Positions 3,779 to 63,295 of a stretch of 64,000 nucleotides of DNA are shown piece after piece. Location: assembly GCF_004010195.1 (NCBI RefSeq), contig NC_057718.1:55420422-55484421 (forward strand), read 5' to 3'. Under the pieces are notes generated by a model. The model did no database searches, was not told the DNA's origin, and was given only the letters and a program-made list of their open reading frames with translations. Both the position numbers and the translations under genes were made by a program. Source of the DNA: Chiloscyllium plagiosum (Eukaryota). Numbering within the stretch: the stretch's first letter is position 1; each line of letters begins with the position of its first letter.

Positions 3779-3912
3779 GAGAAAGTGAGAACTGCAGATG
3801 CTGGAGATCAGAGCTGAAAATTGTGTTGCTGGAAAAGCGCAGCTGGTCAGGCAGCAACCAAGGAGCAGGAGAATCGACGTTTCGGGCATAAGCCCTTCTT
3901 CAGGAATGCCAT
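3779..3912 (-). mobile_element. Short Penelope-derived element with hammerhead motif
   Basis: 14-bp TSD ttatgagaaagttg at 3765-3778 and 3913-3926; minus strand reads CTGAAGA a gggc-ttat-gccc GAAAC GTC. Confidence 0.8.
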
Positions 3913-5581
3913 TTATGAGAAAGTTGCCATTCAGTACAAGCTATTTTTTCTGTGATGTAGAAGAATGGAAAATGTAATCTAATCATGATTTGGTTTCAAA
4001 CTTACAATAATATCAGATAAATTAAACTGTGATTTTAACAGTATTGAAATATAGTGCCCATCACTTAAATGGCCACATTTTAAAATATTACACTCAATTA
4101 TAACAGTCAAAAAGACAATATACCTTTGTTACTCTGCAATATCATCAGTTTCAAAACCGCCAGTTCTGGTGACTTAAATGCTACATTTGTCTTGGACAGA
4201 AATTACTTTTTAAATACTCTGGTACATATCCTGTTGCACAGAAGAAATGTAAGTATGTAGTACATTGGCACAGTGCACTGCATGTACTAAAGGGCTTATT
4301 GAGACAAATTTCACTTTCCTTGGTCTGTATGCTTGCTTTATTGAGTGAGAGGCATCAGCCCAAATTTTGTGGCAGTAGTAATGGTGAGCATTGTCTTACT
4401 TGAAGGCTTAATTTGACAGCAGCTTATTAGTGTTCATATTTCTATTCAACGCAGCAACCCAGAAATTGCTGTTAAAAGCATCTAACTCCTCCAAGATTGC
4501 ACTGGACTCATAAATGCATGAATTAGGATAACGAGGGAGCCATACTTTTGGTTTGAATCAGGATCCTGAGAATGGGATCAAATGGCTGTTCTGAACTGGC
4601 ACTGTGTTAGGAACATTTATCCATTAGAGATTTTTCATGACTTGTCTAGTTAGAGCCCAGAGGACATGTTCACTGTCCACTTGAAGCTAACAGGCAATTA
4701 AGAGGCCTCCCAGTACACGAGATGCAGCAGCATGCCTCCTCAGATTAAGGAGGGAGTGAACACCTCCAACTTGAGGCATTGTTCAGCCACTTTACCAAAT
4801 TTTGAATATTAAAAGCAACCAGGCCAACCCTAAAGAGGAGGGAAGTTCTTACTGGAAGTTCTTAACTGGAAAATTCCAATTGACCTTTGATAAGTAGTTT
4901 TAATTAGTCTTATGCTTGGTCTTAATTGGCTTCTGTTTTGTGCAGACAAGACTGGAGGTTCTTATGGTGGTATCCCTATCTCTGAGCCAAGAAGCCTGGG
5001 TTTGGGTTCCACTTGCTCAAATATCTCTATTAACATCTCTAAATAGGTTGGTTAGAAATATCTACTTATGGGCAGGAATCTTATGTCATCTTCTATTTCT
5101 TCTCAGAAAATTAGTCCAGAAGCAAGGTGGTGCCAGTATGCTACCTGATGGCGTGACTTTATGGAAGCAAAAGTTCTTCCTTGCATATTATGCTAAAAGT
5201 TGTTGGTAACATTACAGCTAGGGCATATTAAAGAGAAAGTGAGTTTGTACCAGTGTAATACATGATGATTACAGCGAAACAGCACATCTGTGCCACAAGA
5301 AAATTATAAGTTATGAATTTTATTCTTTCTACCAATCTAAAAGAAAAGTTTGGGACAACCATGATTGTTTATAATTTTCTGTACAGTGAAGGGCAATTTT
5401 TTTTCCTTCCAGGACTCCTCTTGAGATTTTTTAGAGTGCTACTGTTTGATTTTTGAAGCTACTTTTTGACATGATGCAGTCATGCAGTAACATTTTCCTC
5501 TGTATTTGTGTTAACGTATTAGGTATATGAATGCAGAAACCAAATTAGAATTCATCAATATTCTCAATAATTGTCAACTAT

Positions 5582-5904
5582 GGGCGGCATGGTGGCACAG
5601 TGGTTAGCACTGCTGCCTCACAGCGTCAGAGACCCAGGTTCAGTTCCCGCCTCAGGCGACTGACTATGTGGAATTTGCACATTCTCCCCGTGTCTGCGTG
5701 GGTTTCCTCCGCGTGCTCCGGTTTCCTCCCACAGTCCAAAAATGTGCAGGTTAGGTGAGTTAGCCATGCTAAATTGCCCATTGTGTTAGGTGAAGGGGTA
5801 CATGTAGGGGAATGGGTCTGGGTGGGTTGCGCTTCGGCGGGTTGGTGTGGACTTGTTGGGCCGAAGGGCCTGTTTCCACGCTGTAAGTAATCTAATCTAA
5901 TCTA
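5582..5904 (+). mobile_element. tRNA-derived V-SINE (HE1-like), full length
   Basis: A box tggcacagtgg, B-box-like ggttcagttcc, V-domain-like core (ttctccccgtgtctgcgtgggtttcctcc), (TAATC)n tail; related copies at 22418 and 61081. Confidence 0.9.
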
Positions 5905-6778
5905 TTGATTAAATTTAAAGCCACAACGCACAAGGAAAGCGTTGATTTCCTACACATCACAATATTTAATTTGGTATAAGGCGATGATCATAGGTTAGCA
6001 ACAGGATTTTGGTTTTTAAGAAAATTGGCTCACAAAGTCATCATCCTAAACACAGCTTCCAGATTGATTGATGTCACAGCTAATGCATTCACATCATATA
6101 TTCACAAAGCTGGAATAATTTATTTGAGTCAGGTATTTGGAACATGAAGGGCAATGGTTTTATTGTAATTTATATTTCCTGTTTTTACTTGTTTGCAACC
6201 TGTGAAGATTTTTTTAGTCTGGTAGGAACCATCCTGCTGTTTTCCCTGATCACAAATATACTCTAGAGAGCACCATCATCGGTCACATACAGGATGCTGT
6301 ATGCTGACAAGTATTTGGCCAACCAAAAATAAGATGATCAGTGAAAGACATTCATTAACTGTTTTACATTTTGTCAGCAGTTGGTCTTTAATAATCTTGC
6401 ATATAACCTGTCACGCAGCTAAAATTACCAAACAGTATACAATGAGGCTGTCTCAGCAATAGTCCAGCAGTTGTGTCTTTCAAACCAGGCACCCCATCTA
6501 AACAGAAAGTTTATGATTAAAAATAGCAATATTTATATAGTCTTAAAATTAGATCGTGGTGAGATTGCAAACTCTTTTAAAAGAACAACTGCATTTGACA
6601 TAGTAACTCATCAGGCCAAATGGTCAAGGTGCTTCACATTCGATAAATTTGCAGTAGTTAATAGCTATCACCTATGGTAGGTAAATCATGTTCATTGGGT
6701 GCACTCATTATCACCAATGCAGATTGTATTGGTTCTCTATTATAGTGATAATGCTACATGTGTTTTTGTCCTGTCTAG

Positions 6779-7057
6779 ACTCTTCAAAAGGAAATTCAAG
6801 GCCATAAGCCACGTATTGATGATATATTCGAGAGAAGCCAAAGTACAGTAGCTGCAGATTCCCCAAGTGCTAAGGCTATTCAGCAGAGATTATCAGATCT
6901 ACGAGAACTTTGGAAATTATTGTCTGAAGAAACAGAGAAGCGGCACAATCGGCTGGTGGAGTCTCACAAAGCCCAACAGTACTATTTTGATGCTGCAGAG
7001 GCTGAAGCATGGATGAGTGAACAAGAATTGTACATGATGTCGGAAGAGAAAGCGAAG
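6779..7057 (+). CDS. SPTBN1: Beta-II spectrin exon (TLQKEIQGHKPRIDD...ELYMMSEEKAK)
   Basis: tag acceptor 6776-6778, AAG|gt donor 7058, 279 nt, phase 0/0. Confidence 0.95.
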
Positions 7058-7489
7058 GTTGAATATTGTGTATTTTATACTCTGATAGATGTGCTGAATA
7101 ACAAAAAAGCAAAGGAACTGTGTTAGTATTGGGGAAAAGAAACAGAACAATTGTTAAAGTAACATTCATTAGTAAAAGTGAATGACAGCTCTATGAAGTG
7201 AAGTTTGTGGACAAATTGTTTAATATCCATTGAGACTTTTTCCTAGAACTGCAGTTAATGATATCCCATTAAGTTATGTTTCTTTATTTTTATAGTATTT
7301 CCAAAGAAACTTACCTATAATACCCAACCCAGCCAAAGGTACTAACATATTGGTCAACATACTCAGAGCAAAATATGATTGCTGTTATTTCCCTTTTTTT
7401 TACAATTTGCACTTTTAAACATCTTTAAAAACCCTGTAACAGTGTTACTTAAATGATTAGTCACAGTGCTTGTGGTAATCTCTTTTATT

Positions 7490-8349
7490 CAAAGTTTGTG
7501 CGAAGATTTGTAGCTCGGGTGCTCGTTGTTGTGGTTCTGTTCGCCGAGCTGGAAGTTTTTGTTGCAAACGTTTCGTCCCCTGGCTAGGCAACATCATCAG
7601 TGCTTGGGAGCCTCCTGCAAAGCGCTTCTTTGATGTTTCCTCCGGAGTTTATAGTGNNNNNNNNNNNNNNNNNNNNNNNNNNNNNNNNNNNNNNNNNNNN
7701 NNNNNNNNNNNNNNNNNNNNNNNNNNNNNNNNNNNNNNNNNNNNNNNNNNNNNNNNNNNNNNNNNNNNNNNNNNNNNNNNNNNNNNNNNNNNNNNNNNNN
7801 NNNNNNNNNNNNNNNNNNNNNNNNNNNNNNNNNNNNNNNNNNNNNNNNNNNNNNNNNNNNNNNNNNNNNNNNNNNNNNNNNNNNNNNNNNNNNNNNNNNN
7901 NNNNNNNNNNNNNNNNNNNNNNNNNNNNNNNNNNNNNNNNNNNNNNNNNNNNNNNNNNNNNNNNNNNNNNNNNNNNNNNNNNNNNNNNNNNNNNNNNNNN
8001 NNNNNNNNNNNNNNNNNNNNNNNNNNNNNNNNNNNNNNNNNNNNNNNNNNNNNNNNNNNNNNNNNNNNNNNNNNNNNNNNNNNNNNNNNNNNNNNNAGCT
8101 CGTGTGCTCGTTGTTGTGGTTCTGTTCGCCGTGCTGGAAGTTTTTGTTGCAAACGTTTCGTCCCCTGGCTAGGTGACATCATCAGTGCTTGGGAGCCTCC
8201 TGCGAAGCGGCAGGGACAGACCACTATAAACACCGGAGGAAACATCAAAGAAGCGCTTCGCAGGAGGCTCCCAAGCACTGATGATGTCGCCTAGCCAGGG
8301 GACGAAACGTTTGCAACAAAACTTCCAGCTCGGCGAACAGAACCACAAC
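7490..8349 (-). mobile_element. Penelope-like element: two tandem pLTR copies on minus plus one inverted copy; centre lies in N gap
   Basis: Repeat 7510-7656 recurs at 8097-8210 and inverted at about 8222-8349; 13-bp TSD aatctcttttatt at 7477-7489 and 8350-8362. Confidence 0.8.
8275..8314 (+). ncRNA. Minimal type I hammerhead ribozyme motif
   Basis: gca CTGATGA t gtc-gcctagccagg-ggac GAAAC GTT tgc: stem I gca/tgc, stem II, palindromic ACGT stem III, GUU triplet. Confidence 0.75.
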
Positions 8350-8439
8350 AATCTCTTTTATTTAACATTTTTAAATAAAAATTTAAAAGCTTCTCAGGAA
8401 CCTGTTGAAAGAAACTTTTGATGATGTGTCACTTTGCAG

Positions 8440-8729: not shown

Positions 8730-9345
8730 TATTTGGCATGCTTGCCTTCATTGGTCAGAGCATTGAGTATAGGAGTTTTGATGTCATGTTGCAGCTGTAC
8801 AGAACATTGAGGCCATTTTTATAATACTGTATGCAATTGTGATTGCCCAGCTATCAGAAGGATGATGTTAAACTTGAAAGGGTGCAGAAATGATTTAGAA
8901 GGATGTTGCCACAGTTGGAGGGTTTAAGCTATGGGGAAAAGCTGAATAGACTAGAGGTTATTTTCCTTGGAGCATCAGAAGCTGAGGGGTGACTTTAGAA
9001 AGGTTTATAAAATCATGAGGGGCTAGGATGGAGTGAATAGCCACGGTCTAGTTCCAAGGTTGGGAAGTCCAAAACTAGAAAATGTAGGTTTAAGGTGAGA
9101 GGGGAAGGATTTTAAAAGGACCTGAAGAATAACTTTTTCATATAGAGGACAGTGAGTGTATGAAACAAGCTGCCAGAGGTGTGTCCAGTTACAACGCTTA
9201 AAAGGTATTCGGATAGTTACATCAATTGGGGGGTTTAGGGGGCTGTGGGCCAAATGCTGGCATATGGGTCTAGGTTAGATTGGACTGTCTGATCGTTGTG
9301 GGCGAGTTGACTGAGCGGTCTGTTTCCGTGCTGTGTGACTCCATC
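8730..9345 (+). mobile_element. CR1/HER1-type LINE 3' fragment
   Basis: Degenerate RT C-terminus (KDDVKLERVQ...LNRL...LRGD) followed by a tail similar to the SINE 3' end. Confidence 0.8.
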
Positions 9346-10681
9346 CAAAATACAAGTGACCTTCATATGTCGTCTTTAATAACTCAAAATAATCTGTTTA
9401 TTGTAACAAAATATTATTTCTGAAAACAAATTGCAAACACTTTAATATCTAAGCTTTCATCTAGAATTACAACTGTTGGCTGAATTTTAATGATTTTAAC
9501 TAAGTGCAAGTTGTGTCAAGGTTTGGGAGAAATTCTTGCCACAAGGGCCAGCAAAATTTGTCACCACAACTTACCAAATCCACCCCGGTAGCTATGTACC
9601 CTAACCCAGTATTGTCCCTCACATTCGATTCTTTCACCATCTTACCCATGTTCCTGAACAACTCTCCGTTCATTGGATATCTACCTAAAGGCCAGCATCC
9701 CTTATGCCCATGCCATTCATAAAAGCCCATTATGCAGCTGGATAACCATTGCCTGTCCAGAGCTGTCCTGTCCTGTCCTGATATTTGTTGACATATAGAT
9801 GAGAAGAAATTATCACTGCTGCCAGATCAGGTCCTGGAGATCCTGCTGGATGGGTAAGTGCAAATGTAGAGCTTCCTCTTCCTCCTTCTCACCACCAGCC
9901 CCTCCCCAAAAAACCAGCAGTGGAAGCCACAACATCAGACCGTGTCAGCTTGGTTTGAGGTTGCCACCCTGCTTAAAATGCATGCAGCCATTGGGAGGAT
10001 TGCCTACCACTATAGGAAGATGGCAGCGTCCTTCTCCACTCTTCCAGCATATATGCTATCATCCTCTCTCTGATACCTCTCTCACTTTATCTTTGTTACT
10101 GTGTCAACATCCCACGAAGGCTAATGCTCTACAGCTCTCAATATTGCCTACAACATCTTCCTTCACATGTTGTCACTAACCTCAAACCCAATACCGCTAG
10201 CCCTCCATGTCATCTGTGTTGCCTAATCACTCACTTGAGACACCTCCCCATCTGCACTAAAGGAAAGCTGTGCCACCCATTTTCACTTTGAAGGGATGTC
10301 TTTCCTTGCAAGAGAGACTAGAACCGGAACTCACTAAGAATAAGCAATCTTGCTTTAAGATGTGAAGTTTTTTTCACTCGTCATTTGCTTGTGGAAATCT
10401 CTTCAGAAAACAGAAGAGACTGGATTATTGAATGTATTTAAGACTCTGTCAGATTTTCATAGATGAGAGAACCAAGAGTTATGAAAGGCAGACAGGAAAG
10501 AAGAGTTGAGACCACAACGAGATCAGCCATTATGTTATTGAATGGCAGAGTATGCTCAAAGAGCCAAATGGCCCATTTGTCATTCTGAATTCTATATCTT
10601 ATATTTGTAATGTTAAGACTAATTGCAGCATGAAACTAGGCAAACGTAGGTGAATGTCAAGTTAGAACCATGGTATCATAG

Positions 10682-10816
10682 GACATGCCATTCCTGAAGA
10701 AGGGCTTATGCCCGAAACGTCGATTCTCCTGCTCCTTAGATGCTGCCTGACCTGCTGCGCTTTTCCAGCAACACATTTTTCAGCTCTGATCTCCAGCATC
10801 TGCAGTCCTCACTTCT
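10682..10816 (+). mobile_element. Short Penelope-derived element with intact hammerhead core at 10694-10721
   Basis: 15-bp TSD accatggtatcatag at 10667-10681 and 10817-10831; CTGAAGA a gggc-ttat-gccc GAAAC GTC. Confidence 0.85.
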
Positions 10817-11012
10817 ACCATGGTATCATAGATTAGATAGCAAGTATGTGATTTCGATGTCTTTTCCCCATATCACTATGCAATTGCAGAAAACCATTCT
10901 CTTCTTGGGCTTATTTTGTTGGTTCTTCATTCCTTTGGGTATGGTGTGACTGACATTTACCTGTACAGGAAACCTTACTATCCATTAATTTTTAACAAAT
11001 TTTGTTTTTCAG

Positions 11013-12035: not shown

Positions 12036-14459
12036 AGCTATAATGATATTTGAGTGGATAGTTTTGACATAAATTACGACAGAAGCTGAGCCACCTCCGT
12101 TCAGTGCTGCATAATAGTTGGATCCATAAGTGTATTATTGACTTGGCAATGTTGGAAATGCTGAATGAGCTCTTGGCAAAGTACTGTGCCAAATTGGCAT
12201 TGGACTCCTTACTCCCTGATGTAGATCACAGACTTTCTAGAAGACTGTTGTTGAGTCTATTGGGCACCAGTTCCTCTTTTGAGAAGAAACTATCCTTATG
12301 GACTTCTCACAATTAATTCTTAACTAACCTATTTATTTCAAAGGTTCAAGTTTGGTTCTCTAATTTCTTGATTATATACTGAGATAGCATAATAAGCTAT
12401 TAGAACTGTTAATATCAAACTTTGAACAACAACTAAATATAAGGCCAGCATCTTCAACCAAAAGGTCTGACTGACATTATAAACCAGATCATAGGGACTC
12501 TTGTGGTGCAGTGGTAGTGTGCCTAAATTTAAATTGATTTGTCCCCTTAAACTTCAATTAAATTTCCTGTTGTGTTCCTGTACTATCAACTTGTATCAGT
12601 CCTAGTTTCAGAATTTCAAAGCTAATTATGTCCAGGCTTGGTGGTTTTAAACGGTATTTGTATATTGGATTCACAAGTAATTGCCATCAGTTCAGGGATC
12701 CCCATTCTCAAAGCACTTTGTTTCAGCATTTTGGTTCTGTTTGGGTTGAAGAAGCCCAAAGTGTTATAACACCCAAATGTGTGTGTAAATTCAGAAATCC
12801 AAAGCCTAGTCCTGTCCAAAATCTCTTATCTGCTGACACAAACGTGCAGAAAGATTTAAAAGCTATCAGCAGAAAAGTTAATTCTCTGCTAGTTTGAGAA
12901 GGGGCAAAGTCCAAGTCACCAGGTGATATCATGTCATATCTGTTTTAGGTGTTTTCTCACTCTTATGTTTTGTGGGTTTTTTCTTCCTAGAAACTAGAAT
13001 AAATACTTGAATGATTGCCAAATTTCCACTTAACAGTACATTTTTAGAACACACTTTTCACTGCACAGATTTTTTAAAAAATTAAAATTGAAGAGTAAAG
13101 TTAACACTACTTTTAAACATTTGTCTCAACTTTTGGATTCTTTCTGAAATAAATTTTGAGTTGGTGGTGCTTGTGGACTCTTTCCCCCGTTGTAGTCCTG
13201 ATTTTCATTGAATTATAAAATATTCTCTCATTGTAACAGTCATGAGAATTCCGTGTGAATCTAATCCAATTTTCACTTTAGCCTTGGCTGGGGAAAGGGA
13301 CTTTTGGAGAGTCTTAAATCTCTTGCTTAACTGTCCCTAAGGGTCCTTCACCCACCTATTCCTGCTCCTGAGTGATGTTATACACCAGGTCTGTACACAC
13401 CTCACTGCACAGAGACAAGTTGTTTTGTGAGGTAGCAAGTGCAGTCTGTTCACAGATTTCTGCTTGACATGTTTTGGTTTTAGTTAAATCAAAGGAAAAG
13501 TCAGTTTCATTATTAGTTTCAAAGTCGATTGCAGTTGTAATGCTGGATCTAACTGCAGTGTTTTTTCTCATGTCATACATTGGCGACATAGCATTTCTGT
13601 GAACAATCAATTTTACTGCACAGCATGTTTTACCAATTTCCACAACTTTTTATTTTCCTCATCCAACTTTAAAGCCCATAATGGTGCTCCATCGGTTAAC
13701 TCATTCCGGACTGTTTCTAGGAGACACTGGTAAATACTGTTGTATATTTCTAAATTCTCCAGTACAGCTTCCACTACTGATGATTCTACCTATCCCATTA
13801 AACTGGTAGTCACATTTTAAGTTACTCCAGTATCATAGTGATTTCCTGTTTTAATTTAAGAACTGCTCAGCATGTGTTTAACTGCATCTAAAACTTCCTA
13901 GCTTCTCAAACTTAAAGACAATTAAATTTTGACTTCTGTGACATCCAACTTCTGGCACCACTGTTGATTTTAGGGATTTATGAAATAGTCACGTAATAAT
14001 AAGCAGTCAACAATTTACGGGAATTTTCTGATAGTTTGTTAAGTTTAGAAATGATAAATTTTTTAATTAGGTAATGAATACAACCATGACAATTGAGGAA
14101 GGTTCACTGATAGCAGAGGATAAACAGGTTGTTGGTGTGGAATGTGTTGGTCTTGTTACATTGTGTTAACATTGTATACTCTTTAGCCATGGTTTTAGGG
14201 AGCTTTTCCCCATGTCATCATCTTATGTCCTTCTACCATCTGGAGAAGTCAGCTCTCTGAGGACTATCCATGAGGACTGCTACCTACAAGGACTGCCTGA
14301 TGAGGACTGTCCTCTGCCCCTGAGCACATAATGATACATTCCATTTCTAGCAGGCTGATAGTTTATATTGTGTCAATCTGAATAGTTTTGGCCAGTGACC
14401 ATGGACAGCTACTCATGATGTTGGAAGGGCATTGTCCCCTTTCCCGCCTCCATTTGAAT

Positions 14460-16245
14460 GTAAGAACGAAGAGCAGGAGTCGGCCATCCGGCTCTTAGAG
14501 CCTGCTCCACCACTCAATAAGATCATGGCTAAATTTTTCATGGACTCAACTCCACTTGCCTGTATTTTCATCATATCCTTTAATTCCTTTATTTTTCAAA
14601 GAAGTATCTACCTTAGCTTTAAAAGCGATTATGGAAGTAGCATCAATTACGTCCCTGGGCAAGGAATTCCATAGACTAACAACCCTCCAGGTGAAGAATT
14701 TCCTTCTCAGTTCATGTCTAAACCTGCTCCCTCTAATCTTGAGGCCATGTCCTCTTGTCCTAGTTTCACCTGCCAGTGGAAGCATCTTATCTATTTCTAT
14801 TTTATTGATTCCCTTCATAATTTTATGTTTCTATAAGATCCCCCTCATTCTTCTGAATTCCAATGAATATAATCCCAATCTACTCAGTCTCTCCTCATTA
14901 GCCAACTCCCTCAACTCCGGAACAAACCAAGTGAACCTCCTCTGCACCCCCTCCAGCACCAGTACATCCTTTCTTAAGTAAGGATACCAAATATGTGAAC
15001 ACTACTCCAGGTGCAGCACTTTGTACAGTTGTAACATTACCTCTCTGCTTTTAAACTCAACCCCTTTAGTAATGAAGGACAAAATTCCATTTGCCTTCCT
15101 AATTATTTGTTGTATTTGCACACCAACCTTCTGTGATTCATGCACCAGGACACCCAGGTCCCTCTGCAAATCAGTATGAATGAAACTTTTTACCATTCCA
15201 GTAATAATCTATTTTGCTGTTACTCATACCAAAATGTATGACTTCACATTTATCAACATTGTATTCCATCTGCTAGACCTTTGCCCATTCACTCATTGTA
15301 TCTATGTTCCTCTGCAAATTCCTCTGCATGCTTTGCACTGCCACTCATCTATGTCATTGACAAACTTTGGCACTGTACACATGGTCCCCAACTCCAAATC
15401 ATCTATATAAATTGTAAATAATTGTAGTCCCAACACCACTCCCTGAGGCACACCACTAGTCACTGATTGCTAGCCAGAATAGCACTCATTTATTCCCACT
15501 CTTTGCTTCCTATCAGTCACCCAATCCTCTATCCACGCTAATACTCTATCCCTAATACAATGCATCTTATGCAGCAGCCTCATGTGCAGCATTTTGTCAA
15601 AGGCCTTTTGGAAATCTAGGTATACCACATCCACTGGGTCCCCGTTGTTCACCTTGCTTGAAATACCTTCATAGAATTCCAAAAGATTGGTGAAGCATGA
15701 CCTGCCCTTAATGAACCCATGCTGCGTTTGTACAATGGGGCAATTTCTTTCGAGATGCCCTGCTATTTCTTCCTTGATAATAGACTCCAGCATCTTCCCC
15801 ACTACAGAGATTAAGCTCTCTGGTCTATAATTGCCCATCTTTTGCCTACTTCCCTTTTAAACAGTGGCATCATATTTGCTACTTTCCAATCTGCTGGGAC
15901 TGCCCCAGAGTCCAGCGAAGTTTGGGAAATTACCGCCAATCCACCTGCTATTTCTCCCACCATCTCTTTTAGTACTTTGGGATGTATTCCATCAGGGCTA
16001 GGAGACTTGTCTATCCTTAGCTCCATTAGCTTACCCAACACTAGCTCTTCCGTAATAATAATTGTTTCCAGGTCCTCACCTACCTTCATCTCTTTGTCAC
16101 TTACTGGCATGTTATTAGTATTCTCCTTGTGAAGAACGATGCAAAGTACCTGTTCAACACCTCAGCCATTTCATCATATCCCATAACTAACTGCTCCTTC
16201 TCATCCTCTAAAGTACCAACATTTACTTTAGCCTCTCTTCTTCAT
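14460..16245 (-). mobile_element. CR1 LINE, 5'-truncated and decayed
   Basis: KSPSPDGIHPKVLKE, NYRPESLISVVGKMLESIIK, VYLDFQKAFDK, RTRGHGLK on minus strand; 3' tail near 14460. Confidence 0.9.
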
Positions 16246-16309
16246 TGAAGATTAGCTTTCAACGGCAAAACTGTGTGAGAGGTGAATTATGAGGTGGATG
16301 AAGAGATGT

Positions 16310-17100
16310 TTGATTGTGATTTGGATAAATTGAATGAGTAGCCATTTGTTTGGCAGATGAAGTATAAGGTGCATAAATGTGATATAATCCAGTTTAGTAA
16401 CAAAAACAAGAAGGAGGATTATTATCTGAATGGCAAATGTATCAGTTACTGAAAGTAAGCATGCAGGTGCAGCAGGTGATGAGGAAAGTAGAAGTTACGC
16501 TGGTCTTCATCGCCAGAGGATTTTAGTGCAGGAGCAGGGATATCTTGCAGCAATTGTACAAGGCTTTGATGAGACTACCCCTGGTGTATTGTATTCAGTT
16601 TTGGCCTCGTTATCTGAGGAAGGATGTTCCGGCTTTTGAGGGAGTGCATCGAATGCACCAGTCTGATTCCTGGGATGTCAGGACTGACCTATGAAGAGAG
16701 ATTAGACTATTAGGACTATATTCACTGGAGTTTAGAAGATTGAGGAGGAGATTCTTATAAAATCTGAACAGGACTAGACAGGGTAAACACAGGAAGGATT
16801 TTCCTAATGACTGAGGAGTCCAGAACCGGGGTCACAGTCTAAGGGTAAGGACTAGGCCATGTAGGACTGAGGTGAGGAGAAATTTCTTCATCCAGAGAGT
16901 GAATTCTTTGCCACAGAGAGCAGATGAGGCCAAATCATTGAATGTTTTCAAGAAGGAGTTAGATATGTTTTTTTAGGACTAAAGAAATCAAATGATCTGA
17001 AGCAAAAGCAGGAACAGGATACTGAGTAGGATGATCAACCATGATATTGTTTTGTGGAACACACTTGAATGGCCGAATGACCTACTCCTGTTCCTTTTTT
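16310..17100 (+). mobile_element. CR1 LINE 3' fragment
   Basis: WQMKYK..KC, LGLYSLEFRRLR, SRTGVTV motifs; tail ggccgaatgacctactcctgttcct. Confidence 0.85.
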
Positions 17101-18104
17101 TTTGTATATCTATCCTTTTTCAGAACAAAATCTTACTTTTGAAAATATTGCACTCATAATAAATGTGGTGCCTGATAAATCTTTCGTTTATCCTTGTGGA
17201 AGGCTAATTACTATTGTATCACAGTTAAGTGAGATCATATGCTACACAGGAAATACTGAATATGAAATACAGAAAGCGTATTATTTTGAAGGACACCCTA
17301 TTTCCAACACCTTCTAAAACACAGTGCATTTTTTTCTATATCCCATTAACCATTTTCTGTAATCTGCCACATTGAAATGCTGCCTGAGGGTTTTGCAAGA
17401 GAATCTAATTGCAATCACTCCCTCCTGTGAGCTGACACCTATAATACTTTTGTCCTCTGTCCTGGCTGCACTCATGATCAGTATCTCACCATATCCACTT
17501 CTGAACTGTGCTCTTAAATTATGCACAGCATTTGTTATCTGAGCTGGCAGCTTGGATGTCAGATTGGGTGACAGTACCAATGAAAAAACACTATCTTGAT
17601 GTTGCAAACACTGCCTGGCCAGATTGAAGTTCTTTTGGGAGTAAGAAGAAAAGGGACAAGAGTTGTGTTGAGATGTGAGAGGGGAAGAGTAACAAGAGGT
17701 GCATGCTCACCATTTGGAAGAGGGAAAGTGAGATGTGACAAGGAGTTTTATATTGTTGCCATCTATTGTTTCAGCCCTGCAGTGGCTGCTCCCATGATTT
17801 GGCAAGCACTATCTCCTACATGAACATAAGGATGTTGAGCCACATTTATTCCTCACCTGTTCGTGCTTGCTGCCTCAGGTTGTGTAATTCCTTGACTCTA
17901 AACAGCGAAAATGTGTTAGTGTGGTGCAATGCACCTTAGTGATGTGACTGTTATAGCCAATAATAACTGTACAGATAGTTCTCCTGTAATGCTTGTTTAT
18001 TCAACATGGTTTGTCTGTAACGCAATTTGTGAATTGCCGATGTTTTTAAAGCAAACTCCCATTCGCTGTTACGCAATTCTCATCCCCGGCACTAGGTGTT
18101 TATG

Positions 18105-18208
18105 ATTAGATTAGATTAGATTACTTACAGTGTGGAAACAGGCCCTTTGGCCCAACAAGTCCACACCGACCCTCTGAAGAGAAACCCACCCAGACCCATT
18201 CCCCTACA
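18105..18208 (-). mobile_element. 3' fragment of HE1-like SINE
   Basis: Reverse complement of the SINE tail with (GATTA)n. Confidence 0.8.
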
Positions 18209-19597: not shown

Positions 19598-19822
19598 TAG
19601 GCAAAAGTGAGGACTGCAGATACTGGAAATCAGAGTCTAGATTAGAATGGTGCTGGAAAAGCACAGCAGGTCAGGCAGCATCCAAGGGGCAGGAAAATCA
19701 ACGTTTCGGGCAAAAGCCCTTCATCAGGAAGGGCTGATGAAGGGTTTTTGCCCAAAGCGTAAATTTTCCTGCTCCTCTGATGCTGCCTGACCTGCTGTGC
19801 TTTTCTAGGACCATTCTAAACT
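19598..19822. mobile_element. Palindromic short Penelope-derived element (two inverted hammerhead units)
   Basis: Inverted arms around about 19730; TSD atacagtac at 19589-19597 and 19823-19831. Confidence 0.8.
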
Positions 19823-20582: not shown

Positions 20583-20589
20583 GGTGAAG

Positions 20590-43678: not shown

Positions 43679-43873
<195 letters not shown>

Positions 43874-45180: not shown

Positions 45181-45189
45181 ACAGTTACA

Positions 45190-48389: not shown

Positions 48390-48580
48390 TTCTGGATTAG
48401 TGGTGCTGGAAGAGCACAGCAGTTCAGGCAGCATCCGAGGAGCAGTAAAATCGACGTTTCAGGCTATTCATGATGAAGGGCTTTTGCCCGAAACGTCGGA
48501 TGCTGCCTGAACTGCTGTACTCTTCCAGCACCACTAATCCAGAATCTGGTTCCCAGCATCTGCAGTCATTGTTTTTACCC
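48390..48580. mobile_element. Palindromic short Penelope-derived hammerhead element
   Basis: 15-bp TSD ctttgtatgtacagt at 48375-48389 and 48581-48595; inverted arms; (A)TGATGA agggc-tttt-gccc GAAACGTC. Confidence 0.8.
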
Positions 48581-52890: not shown

Positions 52891-53043
52891 ACATCTGTGG
52901 ATTTCAAAACTAATTATCGAGCTAGTTACCTGCATTTGAACATTTTTCAGAGCCTCTACATACACCACCTTGTGAAGGAACTTCAATTGGAGACAGTATT
53001 TGAAATAAAGCTGGACAAAAGCCTTTATACAAGATAAAGCAAA

Positions 53044-53242
53044 ATCCTGAGTTGTAGGTATTTTAAATCAAAGTATTCATTATGACACATGTCTGAAACA
53101 GGCAGGACAGGATCCCAGAACTACTGATCCAGAGGTAGGGACATAGCACTGGACAACAAGAAACCTATACTCCGTTCTGTTCTCTCCCTTTATATCTGCA
53201 GCCCTGCCAGTAGATTTCCTTTGTGTTTATCTAACTTCCAAG
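53044..53242 (+). repeat. 199-bp direct duplication, copy 1 (copy 2 at 55051-55249)
   Basis: Colinear by eye with about 10 substitutions. Confidence 0.9.
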
Positions 53243-53379: not shown

Positions 53380-54520
53380 CAATCACTCACTAATGAGTAT
53401 GATTGTCCATCTAAGAAATTGGTCAAAAGTTCTGAGTGCTTGCATGGCTGATGAGCCCAATCCTAGAGACACACCTCTAACCATATGTTTCACAAGTGTT
53501 TCTGGGAAGAGGACTTGGTCCTTGGTCTCATCGAGGTCATTGGCATTCCTATCTCAGGTTCCTTTTCTGTAATTGCTCTTAAAGAAGTGTCAAAAATGTG
53601 TTGCTGGGAAAGTGCAGCAGGTGAGGCAGCATCCAAGGAACAGGAGAATCGACGTTTCGGGCATAAGCCCTTCTTCAGGATTCCTGAAGAAGGGCTTATG
53701 CCCGAAGCGTCGATTCTCCTGTTCCTTGGATGCTGCCTGACCTGCTGCGCTTTTCCAGCAACATATTTTCAGCTCTGATCTCCAGCATCTGCAGTCCTCA
53801 CTTTCTCCTTAAAGAAGTGTCCCTTTGTACAAAATGTTCTACCAGGTTGGTTCCTTCCGAATGAGAGCCTCCCAAACATTGACATCTATATTGCATTCCT
53901 TGAATTAAGCCTTCAGGAAATCTTTGAAACGCTTCCTAGGTCCGCCTTTCATTCAAGTGCCTTCACTGAATGGAACAAAGAAGATTTATTTGGGTAGTTC
54001 AAGCTCAGGCATCCTTAGCAGGTGAGTGCCCAACGGAGTTGGTTTGGGATGATCATGGCATCGATGCTGGTGCTATTAGCTGCTTCGAAGATACCATTGT
54101 TAATACATCTGTCCTCCCAGCTGACGTGGAGAATCTGTCTTAATCAATTGCTCCTACTCTGAATGTATTATTAATATGCCAGAACTTTTACCTCTTGTTT
54201 TTTTATAGATTACTTACAGCGTGGAAACAAGTCCTTCTCTGTCCTCCCAGCTGACGTGGAGAATCTGTCTTAATCAACATTGATGGTACCTCTCCAGGGC
54301 CATGAGGTAGAATCTGTATGAAATCCAAGTTCTAGAGCCATATAGAAGATTCAAGCTAATTAGAATAGTGTCTGAGCTCTGCATGTCATCAACAAACTTA
54401 TTGATGCTCTGCCAACGCCTTTGAACTGATCATTATTAAAGACGGTGATGAGCAATGGATGACAGTGCAATTCCAGGAGTGAGTAGCCACAAACAGAGCT
54501 GATCAGATTAATTACCGCCA
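53380..54520 (-). mobile_element. Decayed RTE-clade LINE 3' part
   Basis: Minus strand LLYGSRTW...LERYHQC*LRQILHVSWEDRCINN...SIDAMIIPNQLRW; boundaries approximate. Confidence 0.7.
53592..53807. mobile_element. Palindromic short Penelope-derived hammerhead element
   Basis: 14-bp TSD cttaaagaagtgtc at 53578-53591 and 53808-53821; near-perfect inverted arms centred on cagga-t-tcctg (about 53671). Confidence 0.85.
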
Positions 54521-55050
54521 CCTGCTTATGCATTGTAACCAGTTTGATATCCAACCTATAATTTTAACAAACATTCTATGGAATTTAAGTTTACTTAGAA
54601 GTCATTTTGAAAGTGTTTCGTCAATTTTTTTTAATGGACCCACTCAGCTTCAAGCAATCTCAAGTCAGATTTGATGTAGCAGAAGTGCAGGAAAAGAACC
54701 CTCACTCTGAACGGCAGTTGCCAATATTGAAAGAACACCCAGCTTAATGTGACCAAGTGACAATTTTCTTCTTTTGAATGTGTGTGCTAACTGCTGATTT
54801 AGGGACATTGAGGGCAGGTATTGGGCAGCATAAATGAAATCCAATTACCTTACTGAACATGTACATTAAGGAGCTACCTTGGTGACAAGCCTGCATCAGG
54901 AGGCCATACTAACACGGCTTCTACAATTTTGCCATGGCTGTCTCCTTTCCCACCATTTGTGGCCTAGTAAAACTCTGCCTGTAGAGTTATTAAAGCAGAA
55001 AAGAAAGCTATTTGGTCCATTAATCCCATGTCAGTCCTCTGTAGAGCAAC

Positions 55051-55249
55051 ATCCTGAGTTCTAGGTATTTTTAATCAAAGTATTCATTATGACACATGCC
55101 TGGAACAGGCAGGACAGGATCCCAGACCTACTGATCCAGAGGTAGGGACATACCACTGGACCACAAGAAACCTATACTCCATTCTGTTCTCTCCCTTTAT
55201 ATCTGCAGCCCTGCCAGTATATTTCCTTTGTGTTTATCTAACTTTCAAG
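55051..55249 (+). repeat. 199-bp direct duplication, copy 2
   Basis: See 53044-53242. Confidence 0.9.
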
Positions 55250-55285
55250 TCATGCCCATTCACCATGCAAGAAGTTTCATACTGC

Positions 55286-56812
55286 AAGGTTTGTGAAGGT
55301 TTGTAGCTCAGGTTGAGGTTTAGGGTGTAGGTTTGCTCGCTGAGCTGTAGGTTTGATATCCAGACGTTTCATTACCTGGCTAGGTAATATCATCGTGGTG
55401 ACCTCCAAGTGAAGCGAAGCTGTTGTCTCCTGCTTTCTATTTATATCTTTCTCCTGGATGGGGTTTGTGGTGATGTCATTTCCTGTTCATTTTCTGAGGT
55501 GTTGATAGATGGTATCTAGATCTTTGTGTTTGTTTATGGCGTTGTGGTTGGAGTGCCAGGCCTCTAGGAATTCTCTGGCATGTCTTTGCTTAGCCTGTCC
55601 CAGGATAGATGTGTTGTCCTAGTTGAAATGGTGGTTTTTTTCATCCNNNNNNNNNNNNNNNNNNNNNNNNNNNNNNNNNNNNNNNNNNNNNNNNNNNNNN
55701 NNNNNNNNNNNNNNNNNNNNNNNNNNNNNNNNNNNNNNNNNNNNNNNNNNNNNNNNNNNNNNNNNNNNNNNNNNNNNNNNNNNNNNNNNNNNNNNNNNNN
55801 NNNNNNNNNNNNNNNNNNNNNNNNNNNNNNNNNNNNNNNNNNNNNNNNNNNNNNNNNNNNNNNNNNNNNNNNNNNNNNNNNNNNNNNNNNNNNNNNNNNN
55901 NNNNNNNNNNNNNNNNNNNNNNNNNNNNNNNNNNNNNNNNNNNNNNNNNNNNNNNNNNNNNNNNNNNNNNNNNNNNNNNNNNNNNNNNNNNNNNNNNNNN
56001 NNNNNNNNNNNNNNNNNNNNNNNNNNNNNNNNNNNNNNNNNNNNNNNNNNNNNNNNNNNNNNNNNNNNNNNNNNNNNNNNNNNNNNNNNNNNNNNNNNNN
56101 NNNNNNNNNNNNNNNNNNNNNNNNNNNNNNNNNNNNNNNNNNNNNNNNNNNNNNNNNNNNNNNNNNNNNNNNNNNNNNNNNNNNNNNNNNNNNNNNNNNN
56201 NNNNNNTGAGGAATCTGCGCACTGTATTTTTTGAGTATCCGTTCTTCTTGAATACGTTGTATAAGTGGTTCTCCTCTGTTTTCTGAAGTTCGTCTGTGCT
56301 GCAGTCTGTGGTGGCTCGTTGGAATAGTGTTCTGATGCAGCTTTGTTTGTGTGTGTGTTGGGACGGTTGCTGGTGTAGTTAAGTATTTGGTCAGTGTTTG
56401 TCGGTTTTCTGTATACGCAGGTTTGTAGTTCTCCATTGTCCTTTCTTTCGACTGTGACATCCAGGAATGCGAGTTTGTTGTCGGTTTCTTCCTCCTTGGT
56501 GAACTTTATGCCTGTGAGGGTGTTTTTGATGATGTTAAATGTTTCTTCTATCTTGTTTCGTTTTGTGATGACAAAGGTGTCATCTACGTAGTGGACCCAG
56601 ATTCCTAGTAGCACACAAACCCACCAACACTCTCAAACAAAAACGAACAAACTTAAAAGACCCAGTACAACCCATGGACAAAACCAACGTCATCTACAAA
56701 ATTCCATGCAAGGACTGCCACAAACACTACGTAGGACAAACAGGAAGAAAGTTAGCCACCAGGATACACGAACACAAAAAGACACAACCCTCTCCCTCGT
56801 AGCCCTACACAG
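55286..56812 (-). mobile_element. Penelope-like retroelement (RT on minus, inverted GIY-YIG segment on plus), spanning N gap
   Basis: Minus: WVHYVDDTFV...FTKEEE..KLAFLDVTV...VYRKPTNT; plus about 56615-56775: NVIYKIPCKDCHKHYVGQTGRKLATRIHEH; hammerhead-like motif at 55360-55398 on minus. Confidence 0.9.
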
Positions 56813-58952: not shown

Positions 58953-59136
58953 GGGGTCCAAAAGTGTGGTACTGGAAAAGCACAGCCAGTCAGGCAGCAT
59001 CCGAGGAACAGGAGAATCAATGTTTCGAGCATAAACTCTTCATCAGGAATTCCTCGGATGCTGCCTGACTTGCTGTGCTTTTCCATTGCCACACATTTTG
59101 ACTCTGATCTTGAGCATCTGCAGTCCTCACTTTTTC
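58953..59136. mobile_element. Palindromic short Penelope-derived element (degenerate hammerhead)
   Basis: 10-bp TSD ctggtcaatg at 58943-58952 and 59137-59146; inverted arms. Confidence 0.75.
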
Positions 59137-59229: not shown

Positions 59230-60715
59230 GTTTGATTTATTGTTTTCACGTACCAAGACACCATGAAAAGTTTTGTTTTGCATGTTATGCAGGCATATCA
59301 TACCATACAATGTGCAACAGGGTAGCAGAACATGTGCAGAATACAGTGTTACAACCACAGAGAAGGTATAGAGAGAGATAGATCAGAACTAATGTTTGTG
59401 AGAGATCCGTTCAAAAGTCTGATAACATCAGGGAAGAAGCTGTTCTTGAATCTGTTTGTATAAATATTCAAACTTTTATATCTTTTGCCTGACTGAAGAG
59501 GATGAAAGAGTAAAACTGAGGTGTGAGAGGTCTTTAATTATATGGTTGCCTTCCTGAGGCAGTAGAAAGTATAAATGGAGTCAATGGAAGGAAGGCAGGT
59601 TTGCTTGATGGACTTGGCTGTGTTCATGACTCTAGTTCCTTCCTACCAGTTGCCATACCATGCCGTGATGCATGCAGATAGGATCCTTTCTGTGGTGCAC
59701 CTGTAACAATTGGTAAGAGTCCTTTTGGACATGTTGAGTTTCCTTAGCCTCCTGAAACATTGTTGTGCTGTGTTGACTGTCTTGTTGATAGGTGTAGAAC
59801 AGGACAGATTGTTGGTGATCGTCACTCCCAGAAACCTGACCCTCTCGACCAACTCCACCTCCGCACCATTGATGCAGTACAAGGAGGGTGCCCTCCACTC
59901 CACTTCCTGAAGTTAATGATGAGCTTCTCCGTTTTGCTGCTGTTGATGAGGAGATTGTTGTCATATGCCATGTCACTAAGCACTCAATCTCTTTCCTGTA
60001 TTCTGTCTCATCGTTGTCTGAGATCCACCCTACAACAGGGGTGTCATCGGAAAATTTGTAAATGGAGTTGTTGAGGAATTTGGCCACACAATCATGGGTG
60101 TACAAGGAGTACAGTAAAGGGTGTGTTCGCAGCCTTGCAGGGCAACAGTGTTCAGGATTATGGTGGAGGAGATATTGCTTATTCTTACTGATTGCAGTCT
60201 ATGGGTCAAGACGTCGAGGATCCAGTTACAGAGAGGAGAGTTTAGAGATTAGTTTGTTTGGAATTATGGTGTTGAAGGTGGAGCAGTCGTCAATAAGTAG
60301 GAACTTGACATAGGTATCCTTATTATCCAGATGTTCCAGGGATGATTATATGGCCAGGGAGATGCTATTTCCACGGATCCGTTGCGCCAGTAGGCGAATT
60401 ACAAAGGATCAAGGCAGTTTGGGAGGATGGAATTGATGTGAGCAATGACTAATTTCTCAAAGCTCTTCATAATTATGGAGGTCAGCGCCACTGGATGGCA
60501 ATTATTGAGATACACCGGGATGAGGGTGGTGGTCTTCTTGAAGTGGTTGGACACTTCAGATCGTAGTAAGGAGAGGTTAAAGATGTCTGTGAATACTCCC
60601 GCCAGCTGGTCCACACAGTATCTGAGTGCACAGCCGGAGCATCTAACCAGGCTAGCTACTTTCCATGGGTTCACTCTCAAGAAAACCAATCTAACATCCA
60701 CAGCATGACCATGTT
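59230..60715 (-). mobile_element. Rex1/Babar-clade LINE, decayed RT and 3' end
   Basis: [70 protein letters not shown]. Confidence 0.85.
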
Positions 60716-61080
60716 GCAAGTGCATCCAAAGGTGTTGAGATAGGTGACATTGTTTTCCTGATCTTCTGTTCAAAGTGAGCATAGAATGCATCGAGCTCAT
60801 TGGGTAGGAATGTACTGTGCTTCCATCTTCTTTCTGATATCAAACAGTTACAGTATATCTGCTACTGTACCTACCTCCCTGCAAGGCTCATGCTTCACTA
60901 TAGCATGTAACATCTTCCCTCACTCATTTCTACAAATCCCAACCAGTCCTATAGAGACACCAAAATATCCAAGTCCTGACAACCTAGTAAGAAGCATTGT
61001 CTGTTGCTGTGCTAATCTCCCATTGCTCCTACTCTGAATGTATTATTAATATGCCAGAACTTTTACCTCTTGTTTTTTTA

Positions 61081-61370
61081 TAGATTACTTACAGCGTGGA
61101 AACAAGTCCTTCAGCCCAACAAGTCCACACCGACCCTCCGAAGAGCAACTCGCCCAGACCCATTCCCCTACATTTACCCCTTCACCTAACACTACGAGCA
61201 ATTTAGCTTGGCCAATTCACCTAATCTGCACATCTTTGTGACTGTGGGAGGAAACCCCACGCAGACACTGGGAGAACGTGCAAGCTCCACACAGACAGTT
61301 GCCCGAGGTGGGAATTGAACCCAGGTCTCTAGCACTGTGAGGCAGCAGTGCTAACCACTGTGCCACCGTG
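61081..61370 (-). mobile_element. HE1-like V-SINE
   Basis: Reverse complement of the 5582 family with a small internal deletion. Confidence 0.9.
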
Positions 61371-63134
61371 GTTTGTAATGCATTTTATCTTTTGTCTGCT
61401 GCAGGCAAAAGTGGCATTGTCTCTGTTGCCAAGAGGGTGGCCCTACAAGAGAACCCCTTCCTCCACCACAGAGAAAGAGAGCACAGATGTCTTAGAGGAA
61501 GCACAAGTCGCCAGCATTCTGCAGCCTGCATCAACTCAGACAGACATCTCAGTAGATTAGAGTTGGACGTACTGCTGACTCAATGATTCACCCTTCCACA
61601 TTACTTCATTCTTTTCGATGCTATATCGACTCCCTCCTTATATATTGAGTTTACCCTTTATAATTATTATCCTCTCCATCCCAGCATTCTTTGTTCCCCA
61701 CATTCTCTCCACCAACAGTGACTCCTGATAATCTCTGCTTGAATTTTATTGGTCAGACCCCCAAGACTGACCTTGGCCCAACCCCTTTGACTGAAGTAGA
61801 TGAACAGCCCCGAATAATGAGTGAGCACACCGCAGAATTATATCAGTACGGTTCCCCAACTGACATTTTGAGACATCCCTTTCTGGATGTGCAGGACCCA
61901 AATGCTGATTTGGCCCACTCCATGCACTGTAGTAAAATGACCCCCTGACCATGAGAACCCTGGATGGTCAACCAAATGTGTCCAAGCCTCAGGACTGATA
62001 GGGGAAGCTGCCCTTAACTGATTATGCTGGGACCCAATGGCTTAACTGTGCCTCCCTTAATTTGACTGAGGACTACTCACTGTAGACTTTGAGATATGGC
62101 CTTTTGTTTACAGCACATGCAATGTATATGCCTCTACACTACAGACTATGGTGCGCGTGGGAGATTGATGTAGCACAGTGCCGTACAACAACATGTCCAG
62201 CCACACAACTGACCACTGAATAAGCTGCCTGGCTTTGTGTCTGCACTGAAAAACAATTCGTCAGAAGTACGATGAGCCTGTTCTGATTGGCTCAGGGGTC
62301 AAGATGCAAAAACGCAAGGCAGGGATTTTATGAGCATCCAAGCAGATGCAGAGTGAATGAGCACTATGAAAGCAAGGTGTATGAGGCAGCCTGGGAGAAT
62401 CTATGAGTTGGGTGAAAAGTGTTGCAGCAGCACTCCAATGAAAGGTGCCAGTCTGGTCCATTGTACAGCATTGAATTGCAGAACCTTATTTGTTGTGGGT
62501 AAAGCACCACAAACTACCTTTAATTTGGTTATGTATTAAGACAATCAAGTACTAAAACAATGATTTAGACTTCATTGCATGTAGCAACCAAAATACGATC
62601 ACTCAAGTAAACAAATCAAGCCTCACAATTCAACTTGGCTACTCCCCAATTAATGGTAGAATTTAACTATGATTCTAACCAACAGTGTCTATCTCTGAAG
62701 GTCTAGGATTTTGCCCATGTGTAGTGTTGATCTTCAAAGTTCTGCTACTGGGTTGTTCTGGTGTTGGATTCTTATACAGATTTTCAGTCTTTAGGTGTAT
62801 GATGTGGTTCTTTAGATTCTTTCATCCACAATACTACAGCTTGCTTTTTTATCAGAAGTAGCTTCTTTGTTCCTTGTAACATTTAACCTGAACTGTCTAT
62901 TTGAGCACACAGCTTTCCTGAGATTAACTTCTTAAATTCTTCTGCAGGATAACCAGTTGCCCTTATGACTTAATGCAGCCGGTTATTGAGCAGATGCCAA
63001 AACAGTTTTGTTCATGTATCAGTTTCATCTCCTTCTTTTCCTAGACATGGCTAATTGCTTTCAATTCCTATATAAGGTTGTCCTTATCTTTAATAGTTTA
63101 TTCCAGACAGAGTTATTACTGCTTCTTTCCATGT

Positions 63135-63295
63135 CTGATAGACAAGCAAGAGTCCGGCAGCAAGCCCAAGCAGTGTCAGGAAGTGGAGAAGTCAACATTT
63201 CGGATGTAACCCTTCAGGACTGGGGGTGGATGTAAGGGGAGCTGCAGATAAAGGGAGGATGGGGGAGGGTTTTGGATGAGGAAAGGAGTGGAGTG
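63135..63295 (-). mobile_element. Penelope pLTR fragment with degenerate hammerhead
   Basis: Minus strand agtc CTGAAG ggttacatcc GAAATGTT gact; resembles the 32325 copy. Confidence 0.6.

Follow-up and report, generated by a model that had tools for sequence, protein, structure and literature searches.

Minimal hammerhead ribozyme motifs in terminal repeats of Neptune- and Poseidon-like Penelope elements in a shark genome

We analysed hammerhead ribozyme motifs in a 64,000-nucleotide stretch of the Chiloscyllium plagiosum genome (contig NC_057718.1, positions 55,420,422–55,484,421 of the forward strand; hereafter the window). The motifs belong to the repeats of Penelope-like elements, a conclusion about which we have very little doubt. 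The explanation that probably accounts best for the whole pattern is that they are minimal hammerheads in the terminal repeats of Neptune- and Poseidon-like elements, and that the short copies would be dead, reverse-transcribed stubs reaching from an internal start of copying back to the likely start of the RNA. The original prediction, made by a model from the DNA letters, had placed minimal type I hammerheads in the pseudo-long terminal repeats (pLTRs) of Penelope-like elements. This placement is upheld by the coding remnants that lie beside the repeats of three subfamilies (C, A2 and B2, defined below).

Hammerhead motifs recur across the window

All 18 positions proposed as hammerheads carry the motif, intact or decayed. 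A relaxed core scan (CUGA-N-GA, a stem of at least 3 bp, then GAAA-Y-R-U-H) gave 10 matches in the window, compared to a mean of 0.055 and a maximum of 1 in 200 dinucleotide shuffles. The strict form of the scan (CGU-H) gave 8 matches, compared to 0.005 in the shuffles. A Neptune-type covariance model was then built from 12 sequences (8 from the window and 4 metagenome loci). It returned 13 strong matches in the window together with the decayed motif at 19734, the training copies matching by construction, and the next matches had E-values of at least 0.93. These matches and four copies of type B make up the proposed list, with none missed. Among the 10 Rfam matches to the window at E-values up to 5 there was no hammerhead family, and none was expected because the motifs are without helix III. 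Rfam matches to microRNA families were rejected as palindromes with scores far below gathering.

The proposed density of about one motif per 4 kb holds for motifs (one per 3.5 kb) but not for loci (one per 5.3 kb), as the 18 motifs collapse to 12 loci because many are the two arms of one insertion. The motifs at 7565, 8150 and 8275 form one locus because all three lie within one 13-bp target site duplication (TSD). The region 20490–22360, where TSD scores stayed within the random range, may hold one insertion or several.

The proposal that the elements are high-copy is borne out for family A, which is very large: 97,084 and 88,026 contig records aligned to a 901-base stretch in two DNA runs (X1 and X13), with nearly all of the depth over the family A copy, although these are counts of contig records and not copy numbers, and summed contig depth was not used as such either.

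Two lineages carry the motifs

Self-comparison of the window and alignments gave two lineages with five subfamilies, Neptune-like A, A2 and C and Poseidon-like B1 and B2, the clade names resting on linker, open reading frame (ORF) and coding features rather than on a tree with named references. This replaces the ‘at least three families’ suggested initially. The stem II sequences had also been described as unrelated, which does not hold. A, A2 and C are homologous (A and A2 are 75–81% identical over about 80 nt), with a common core, a stem II of the GGG...CCC type and, downstream, a GATGCTGCC block; identity between B1 and B2 is 72%. The window self-comparison gave no match between B1 or B2 and A, A2 or C.

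Upstream of the repeat, the B2 and C loci each hold a reverse transcriptase (RT) and then a C-terminal GIY-YIG endonuclease, as broken remnants in that order. The C locus has an RT thumb, a linker with the sequence CNHRKCNTC (about 21331–21284) and a GIY-YIG remnant, and its endonuclease (21293–20955) matches proteins that carry an RT plus a GIY-YIG at the C terminus. A CxxxxCxxC-type linker is present in 50 of the 77 scorable homologues, and a zinc-finger linker in none of the 18 scorable homologues of the B2 RT and endonuclease remnants. A CX2-5CxxC linker between RT and endonuclease marks Neptune and Nematis (Craig et al. 2021, PMC8557442). An RT fragment at 56237–56632 shares 95% identity with an RVT_1-bearing protein of Chiloscyllium punctatum and 75–76% with Stegostoma proteins, and a GIY-YIG match at 56605–56784 has an E-value of 0.0017, below the curated cut-off. 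In B1 and B2 there is a Met at the first hammerhead box and the frame is open to the element end, as in the anole element discussed below. Pfam searches of 99 window proteins gave no relevant hits among the Penelope-derived pieces; the broken RT and endonuclease needed homologue searches.

Family A has no linked ORF or coding remnant within the window. Its homology to A2 and C suggests a link to Neptune, against which it must be counted that the window holds no autonomous A element.

Conservation and decay of the ribozyme

Both boxes of the core (CUGANGA and GAAA) are perfect in 12 of the 18 copies. Eight copies are intact in core, ACGU and minimal stems, and the other ten are damaged. An extra base between positions 9 and 10.1 is present in 17 copies (A in A, A2 and C; U in B), the copy at 63217 being deleted there. 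In place of a helix III there is an ACGU palindrome (15.2–16.2), with its CG kept in 12 copies and changed in the other six to TG or CA, the products of CpG decay. Where minimal hammerheads of Penelope-like elements have a G10.1–C11.1 pair, A and B1 also read G-C, but the two C copies and A2 at 32416 read G.U, and B2 reads A-U. Helix I, of 4–5 bp in that class, has 7 bp in the C copy at 22244, 4 bp in the C copy at 20655 and the A2 copy at 63217, and 3 bp plus a distal helix in B1. In native family A, stem I consists of 2 bp, a U.U mismatch and 1 bp, with pairing probabilities of 0.6, 0.6 and 0.11. Of the stems that had been described as self-complementary, ‘gggtc/aacct’ makes just 4 bp, a G.U among them.

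The proposed check of stem covariation had a positive outcome for stem I, where pairs change on both sides among 12 aligned sequences (alignment A4). The pair types are C-G (7), U-A (4) and U.G (1), and for the second pair C-G (4), G-C (3) and unpaired (5). The percentage paired and the covariation score of A4 were above all 500 shuffles and all slid controls, a control that related sequences can beat even without structure. Two further statistics count against conserved pairing: neither the pairs with change on both sides (107 of 500 shuffles) nor the further pair types (495 of 500) were above control. In B, two-sided changes occur at 2 of the 25 predicted pairs; these two lie in stem II, and of the four sequences compared three come from one insertion.

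The exact family A pattern had no match in the metagenome contigs searched, and a relaxed pattern gave five loci (L001–L005). These lie on unrelated contigs and have the same core and a GGG...CCC stem II. A paired stem I of 4–7 bp, not demanded by the pattern, is found in four of the five hits, three of which are one lineage. L005 has a Neptune-like RT about 1.5 kb upstream of the motif and is the sole metagenome locus with a Penelope RT match. L001 (motif at 2488–2536) is without stem I, initiator or Penelope protein match and has a hairpin after GAAAC; it is possibly another hammerhead topology, and was excluded from A4.

Copies in the genome decay neutrally. At 10713, C>T (which keeps the stem II pair) reached 9.4%, 14.1% and 16.0% in X1, X13 and the RNA run X21, and at 10714, G>A (which destroys the catalytic G12) reached 9.6%, 14.2% and 17.9%. 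Decay is taken as neutral because this CpG mutates equally on its tolerant and its G12-killing sides. Among the variants listed, non-CpG changes inside the ribozyme were confined to N7 and loop II. Four intact cores (19727, 53678, 8185 and 8278) sit in insertions predicted to form long hairpins. At 53678 the hammerhead fold is predicted to cost 22.6 kcal/mol more than the alternative, and the whole insertion (53592–53807) is predicted to fold into one long perfect hairpin. Separately, the head-to-head junction at 53678 (minus strand) supplies a perfect 5–6-bp stem I, which native family A lacks. We conclude that the genomic copies in place are mostly not working ribozymes. The source elements kept the hammerhead fold.

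These observations bear on the idea that the scattered copies act on the host by cutting spectrin pre-mRNA, with pairing across copies or families through the shared ACGU palindrome. Three intact cores do lie in host sense (8278, 10694 and 22244), and three of the four single-orientation intronic loci are antisense, which could reflect selection, though in numbers far too few to test. Set against this are the neutral decay, the ACGU duplex being worth only −1.7 kcal/mol, the predicted hairpin that locks 8278, and the near-zero predicted pairing of stem I of 22244 in its context. We consider a host role extremely improbable.

Structure of the insertions

Family A comprises seven insertions in the window, three solo and four head-to-head. 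Candidate TSDs of 10–16 bp were found at the borders of all seven and of B1. Six of these eight TSD scores exceed those of all 300 random pairs; the other two (9 and 10) lie inside the random range and so speak against the assignment. At the A2, C and B2 loci no TSD was found, with scores within the random range. In all four head-to-head A insertions and in B1, one arm carries a tail (about 35 nt, on one side only) and the other stops 35–50 nt short. B1, with two direct repeats around a gap and an inverted repeat, may be a long element. Five of the six single-orientation loci are on the minus strand, which is not significant.

Both junctions of the solo stub at 10689 are present in a DNA run of a related organism that is about 3% diverged (a rough word-share estimate). 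Therefore, this insertion predates the split from that organism. Two tailed solo A stubs have a few extra bases between the TSD and the 5′ edge (3909–3912 and 10682–10688) that form a tiny palindrome (ATG-x-CAT). This may represent, at its shortest, the fold-back from which head-to-head copies are made.

The 5′ edge of the repeats

The 5′ edge of family A is sharp. In all seven of its insertions the main arm begins −5 to −3 from C3, and the cut site lies 27 nt downstream. In two DNA runs, unrelated AT-rich sequence takes over from the element at 10690 (−4) in 433 and 355 contigs. Head-to-tail joints reach 10689/10690 (38 contigs in X1 and 8 in X13), and most of the strand-change joints listed begin at 10689–10699.

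Sequences around this edge were compared to the TATA and initiator consensus motifs. A YYANWYY initiator with its A at −4 was found in 8 of the 9 sequences with native upstream DNA (background 0.012), and a TATA match with at most two mismatches at −33 to −29 in 7 of the 9 (background 0.154); the joint background is 0.0017. B1 and B2 both have a TATAAA 30 nt ahead of one shared CG, and −24 is where the 5′ repeat of B1 starts. We therefore lean, somewhat more than evenly, towards the RNA beginning at the 5′ edge of the ribozyme.

A wider reading, which we hold to be evenly balanced between right and wrong, is that stem I would contribute, with its 5′ strand, the polymerase II initiator, 31 nt behind a TATA-like box, in Neptune-type elements both of this shark and of unrelated animals, and the RNA would open with the ribozyme. 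The pLTR would then work like U3-R of a true LTR, the capped first 32 nt would be lost on cleavage in the 5′ repeat, and the many solo hammerheads of animal genomes would be run-off cDNAs that map transcript starts to the base. If the RNA does start at this edge, this would tie together three features of Penelope-like elements, namely that solo hammerheads occur in bulk, that reverse transcription starts internally and that an upstream repeat is needed, and the ribozyme would gain a role at the capped RNA end.

Several observations weigh against a transcript start at the edge. The initiator pattern, which is short and has its last Y dictated by C3, was picked out post hoc. The nine sequences are not independent and represent about three lineages plus L001; L001 is without the initiator, and L002 and L003 have three mismatches to TATA. 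Loose ends at 10689, with a consensus in common close to the edge, occur in 654 and 530 contigs, so that longer family A copies are common too. In B, the −24 edge (n = 1) falls exactly where the extended stem I is predicted to have its 5′ end, so that the promoter and structure explanations are confounded there. In C and in L002, L003 and L005, stem I pairing runs 2–3 bp upstream of −4, and an RNA starting at −4 could not form these pairs, which would be unusable. Finally, no pile-up of starts or ends was seen in the RNA run X21 (3,350 reads, in both orientations), whose reads derive almost all from other copies and which is a fragmented poly(A) single-cell library that cannot show RNA ends.

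The sharp 5′ edge could instead be a stop or template-switch hot spot of the reverse transcriptase, caused by the ribozyme fold on a longer RNA. The edge does coincide with the 5′ end of stem I in both lineages, head-to-head junctions fall at the same place, and longer copies exist. However, family A combines the weakest stem I with the sharpest edge. Stalling would be expected as a polymerase enters the helix from its 3′ side, not once it has copied through it, and a stop does not predict TATA-like boxes at −30/−31 in both lineages. For these reasons a stop at the fold seems unlikely.

Further into the repeat, at 10752–10775 (plus strand) and at the homologous places in A and A2, there is a CTGAC, a pyrimidine run and a CCAG in sense orientation. 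This arrangement resembles a branch point and 3′ splice site, and Penelope elements are known to carry introns. No joint matching this putative splice site is listed for the RNA run X21.

Origin of the short copies

In the mechanism that we favour, the Neptune-type repeat would contain a core promoter for polymerase II, its TATA-like box lying about 31 nt ahead of the initiator. The initiator A would be the first base of the stem I 5′ strand, and the RNA would begin with the ribozyme domain. In the Poseidon type, with its TATAAA 30 nt upstream, the start would be at position −23. The element protein would start to reverse-transcribe at two sites, about 90 and 125 nt into the RNA; for the anole element, two internal starts have been demonstrated in vitro (PMC11167929). 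Stubs of 90 or 125 nt would come from a start in the 5′ repeat, and longer, 5′-truncated copies from one in the 3′ repeat. Head-to-head pairs would arise when both target strands are primed or when the cDNA folds back. The source transcript would be the one place where the ribozyme matters; there, its two repeats (5′ and 3′) could pair via ACGU as a dimer, probably with help from protein. Cleavage would be dispensable for insertion, and inserted stubs, having neither TATA box nor partner, would decay neutrally.

A different origin, with family A as a non-autonomous SINE-like (short interspersed element-like) or retrozyme-like unit of 125 nt, would give it a transcript of its own, possibly from tandem copies, moved in trans by the Neptune protein. 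The fixed unit, with both ends sharp and TSDs, the head-to-tail joints from 10814 to 10689/10690 and the lack of an A-linked ORF within the window all agree with this, and a preprint derives tandem retrozymes from pLTRs (10.64898/2026.07.22.740005). On the other hand, family A copies with shared upstream sequence are common, the window has no tandem array, the 125-nt unit is without the upstream TATA-like box, and ends do not pile up at the cut site. We regard this origin as improbable.

Self-cleavage could also set the ends of the mobile RNA, which would be cut, circularised and copied, as proposed previously (PMC4209133). Core and stems are conserved among source elements, and B1 has two tandem repeats on one strand (C3 at 7600 and 8185, minus strand) that could dimerise. 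Yet no copy in the window begins or ends at N17, all of them spanning the cut site. The commonest loose ends lie elsewhere than the cut site, and ribozyme mutants leave insertion of the anole element unaffected in vitro (PMC11167929). We therefore think it very unlikely that cleavage defines the ends. As a possible substrate for dimer cleavage, B1, which has tandem repeats and an intact core, is ready-made.

Relation to known elements

The motifs belong to a known class, and what is added is mainly the occurrence of minimal hammerheads in Penelope families of a shark. A less standard detail is the start of the family A stubs 3–5 nt before CUGA, where the stem I 5′ strand reads as an initiator. 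Thousands of solo minimal hammerheads from Xena, Poseidon and Neptune have been reported in fish, coelacanth and frog (Cervera and de la Pena 2014, PMC4209133). The novelty implied at the outset is thus lost, minimal hammerheads in Poseidon and Neptune repeats being already described there. The copies here share with that class the core, the extra base 9/10.1, the ACGU palindrome replacing helix III, the several consensus families per genome, the predominance of solo copies and the opposite-strand pairs. Unlike those, family A has a helix II of 4 bp and a helix I with a U.U mismatch. The density here exceeds that of coelacanth and Xenopus, for which 4,000 and 9,000 motifs were reported. The accessible text of that paper takes up neither the 5′ edge nor an overlap with a promoter, and the term shark is absent from two of its supplement files.

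Another comparison is PAc, a Poseidon of Anolis carolinensis (Frangieh et al. 2024, PMC11167929), in which the ORF starts at the hammerhead as it does in B. B also resembles PAc in having an AC-rich region and a tail about 70–105 nt into the ORF. Unlike PAc, B1 has GUU at the cut site, and A, A2 and C are Neptune-like. Copying of the uncleaved RNA was shown in vitro for PAc, whereas the elements here are known from sequence alone.

Penelope insertions are known to have direct and inverted pLTRs, a 30–40-bp tail at one end and a TSD (Arkhipova et al. 2013, PMC3846280; PMC8557442). B1 has the layout of Pen2a in these papers, with two direct pLTRs, an adjacent inverted pLTR, one tail and a TSD, and the A insertions follow the Penelope layout in their palindromic junctions and one-sided tail. 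TATA and initiator-like motifs in a pLTR were noted in PMC3846280, and an internal promoter with an initiator in PMC2377424. Unlike in published insertions, the copies here mostly consist of just the 90–125-nt repeat, and the initiator-like motif coincides with the 5′ strand of stem I. No paper combining Penelope-like elements, initiator, TATA and hammerhead was found in the literature searched.

Non-LTR retrozymes (PMC7229834; bioRxiv 10.64898/2026.07.22.740005) are likewise short, non-coding, pLTR-derived units with a type I hammerhead, and they have been reported in one chondrichthyan (the same preprint). The elements here differ in having minimal rather than canonical cores and just a few head-to-tail joints among the contigs of the DNA runs; no tandem array of units that each hold a complete hammerhead was found in the window. 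We found no shark-specific report of these hammerheads in the literature, most subscription papers being outside the search. Expansion of Penelope-like elements in shark introns is already in print (bioRxiv 10.1101/443036).

Individual loci

Of the three solo family A stubs, the first (3779–3908, minus strand) has a hammerhead and tail, with C3 at 3903, a predicted cut after 3876 and a 14-bp TSD (3765–3778 and 3913–3926). The second (10689–10816, plus strand) has C3 at 10694, a predicted cut after 10721 and a 15-bp TSD (10667–10681 and 10817–10831). The third (28088–28178, minus strand) is without a tail and has C3 at 28174, a decayed ACGU and a 16-bp TSD with one mismatch.

The head-to-head family A insertions lie at 19598–19819, 48390–48580, 53592–53807 and 58953–59136. 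The first has an intact core (C3 at 19727, minus strand, GUU), a decayed one (19734, plus strand) and a 12-bp TSD with one mismatch. In the second, the main core (48470, plus strand) has C3 changed to A, the other arm is without the first box, and the TSD is 15 bp. The third has an intact core (C3 at 53678, minus strand), one with GAAA changed to GAAG (53684, plus strand) and a 14-bp TSD. In the fourth, the main core (C3 at 59046, minus strand) has a decayed ACGU, the other arm begins at +39, and the TSD is 10 bp.

The Poseidon-like B1 insertion (7490–8349, minus strand) is bounded by its 13-bp TSD (7477–7489 and 8350–8362) and has a TATAAA at −53 from C3. It consists of the 3′ pLTR and tail (7490–7656, C3 at 7600, minus strand), an assembly gap (7657–8096), the 5′ pLTR (8097–8209, C3 at 8185, minus strand) and the inverted pLTR (about 8222–8349, C3 at 8278, plus strand).

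B2 (55285–56784, minus strand) is a Poseidon-like, 5′-truncated element. In order, it has an inverted GIY-YIG piece (56605–56784, plus strand), an RT remnant (56602–56208), a gap (55647–56206), an endonuclease end (55645–55493), TATAAATA, a hammerhead with a damaged first box (about 55396) and a tail reaching 55285. The inverted piece at its 5′ end comes from inside the endonuclease and does not reach the repeat; it is not an inverted pLTR.

The decayed Neptune-like element at 20490–21793 (minus strand) comprises the RT thumb, linker and GIY-YIG described above, a 3′ untranslated region (UTR) and two decayed hammerheads, the first of family C (C3 at 20655) and the second of A2 (C3 at 20580). 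At 20547–20662 (minus strand) the C hammerhead is joined directly to the A2 one 75 nt downstream, at the shared GATGCTGCC region, making a cross-subfamily tandem on one strand in which both hammerheads are decayed. Next to it, an inverted partial family C copy (21829–22360, plus strand) is 77% identical to 20588–21081. It holds an endonuclease end, 3′ UTR, CATAAAAG at −31 from the initiator A, a hammerhead and a tail; the hammerhead is intact, with C3 at 22244, a 7-bp stem I and a predicted cut after 22273.

Two further A2 copies are on the minus strand. That at 32330–32660 has a 3′ UTR and a decayed hammerhead (C3 position 32416), preceded by the last codons of a Neptune-type endonuclease (32656–32612; a weak tblastn match with an E-value of about 1). 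That at 63158–63290 has a 3′ UTR remnant and a core with a 3-nt deletion (C3 at 63217), and its upstream boundary is approximate.

Host gene and other repeats

The host gene (723–51223, plus strand) is the 3′ part of what we take to be a beta-spectrin gene, with spectrin repeats, exons that are presumably PH-domain-like from their C-terminal motifs, and a stop near 51223. Pfam Spectrin matches among the window proteins back this call. About 13 kb of the window extends past the gene. The first eight of the 12 motif loci lie between exons, within its introns, and the other four downstream of it. Family A makes up 1.8% of the window and Penelope-derived DNA in total about 7.7%.

Repeats of other kinds are also present. 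A family of about 340 bp, probably a SINE, occurs at 5582–5918, 18099–18208, 22418–22758, 54108–54277 and 61022–61370, with 83–93% identity between copies. Remnants of long interspersed elements, which we take to be CR1-like and L2-like, lie at 14452–16748, 23187–24589 and 59632–60839, with an RVT_1 match at 15473–15856. Downstream of the spectrin stop codon there is a 208-bp direct repeat with 94% identity (53035–53242 and 55042–55249, about 2 kb apart), and an inverted pair of 600-bp repeats, 72% identical, is found at 8733–9334 and 35406–36014.

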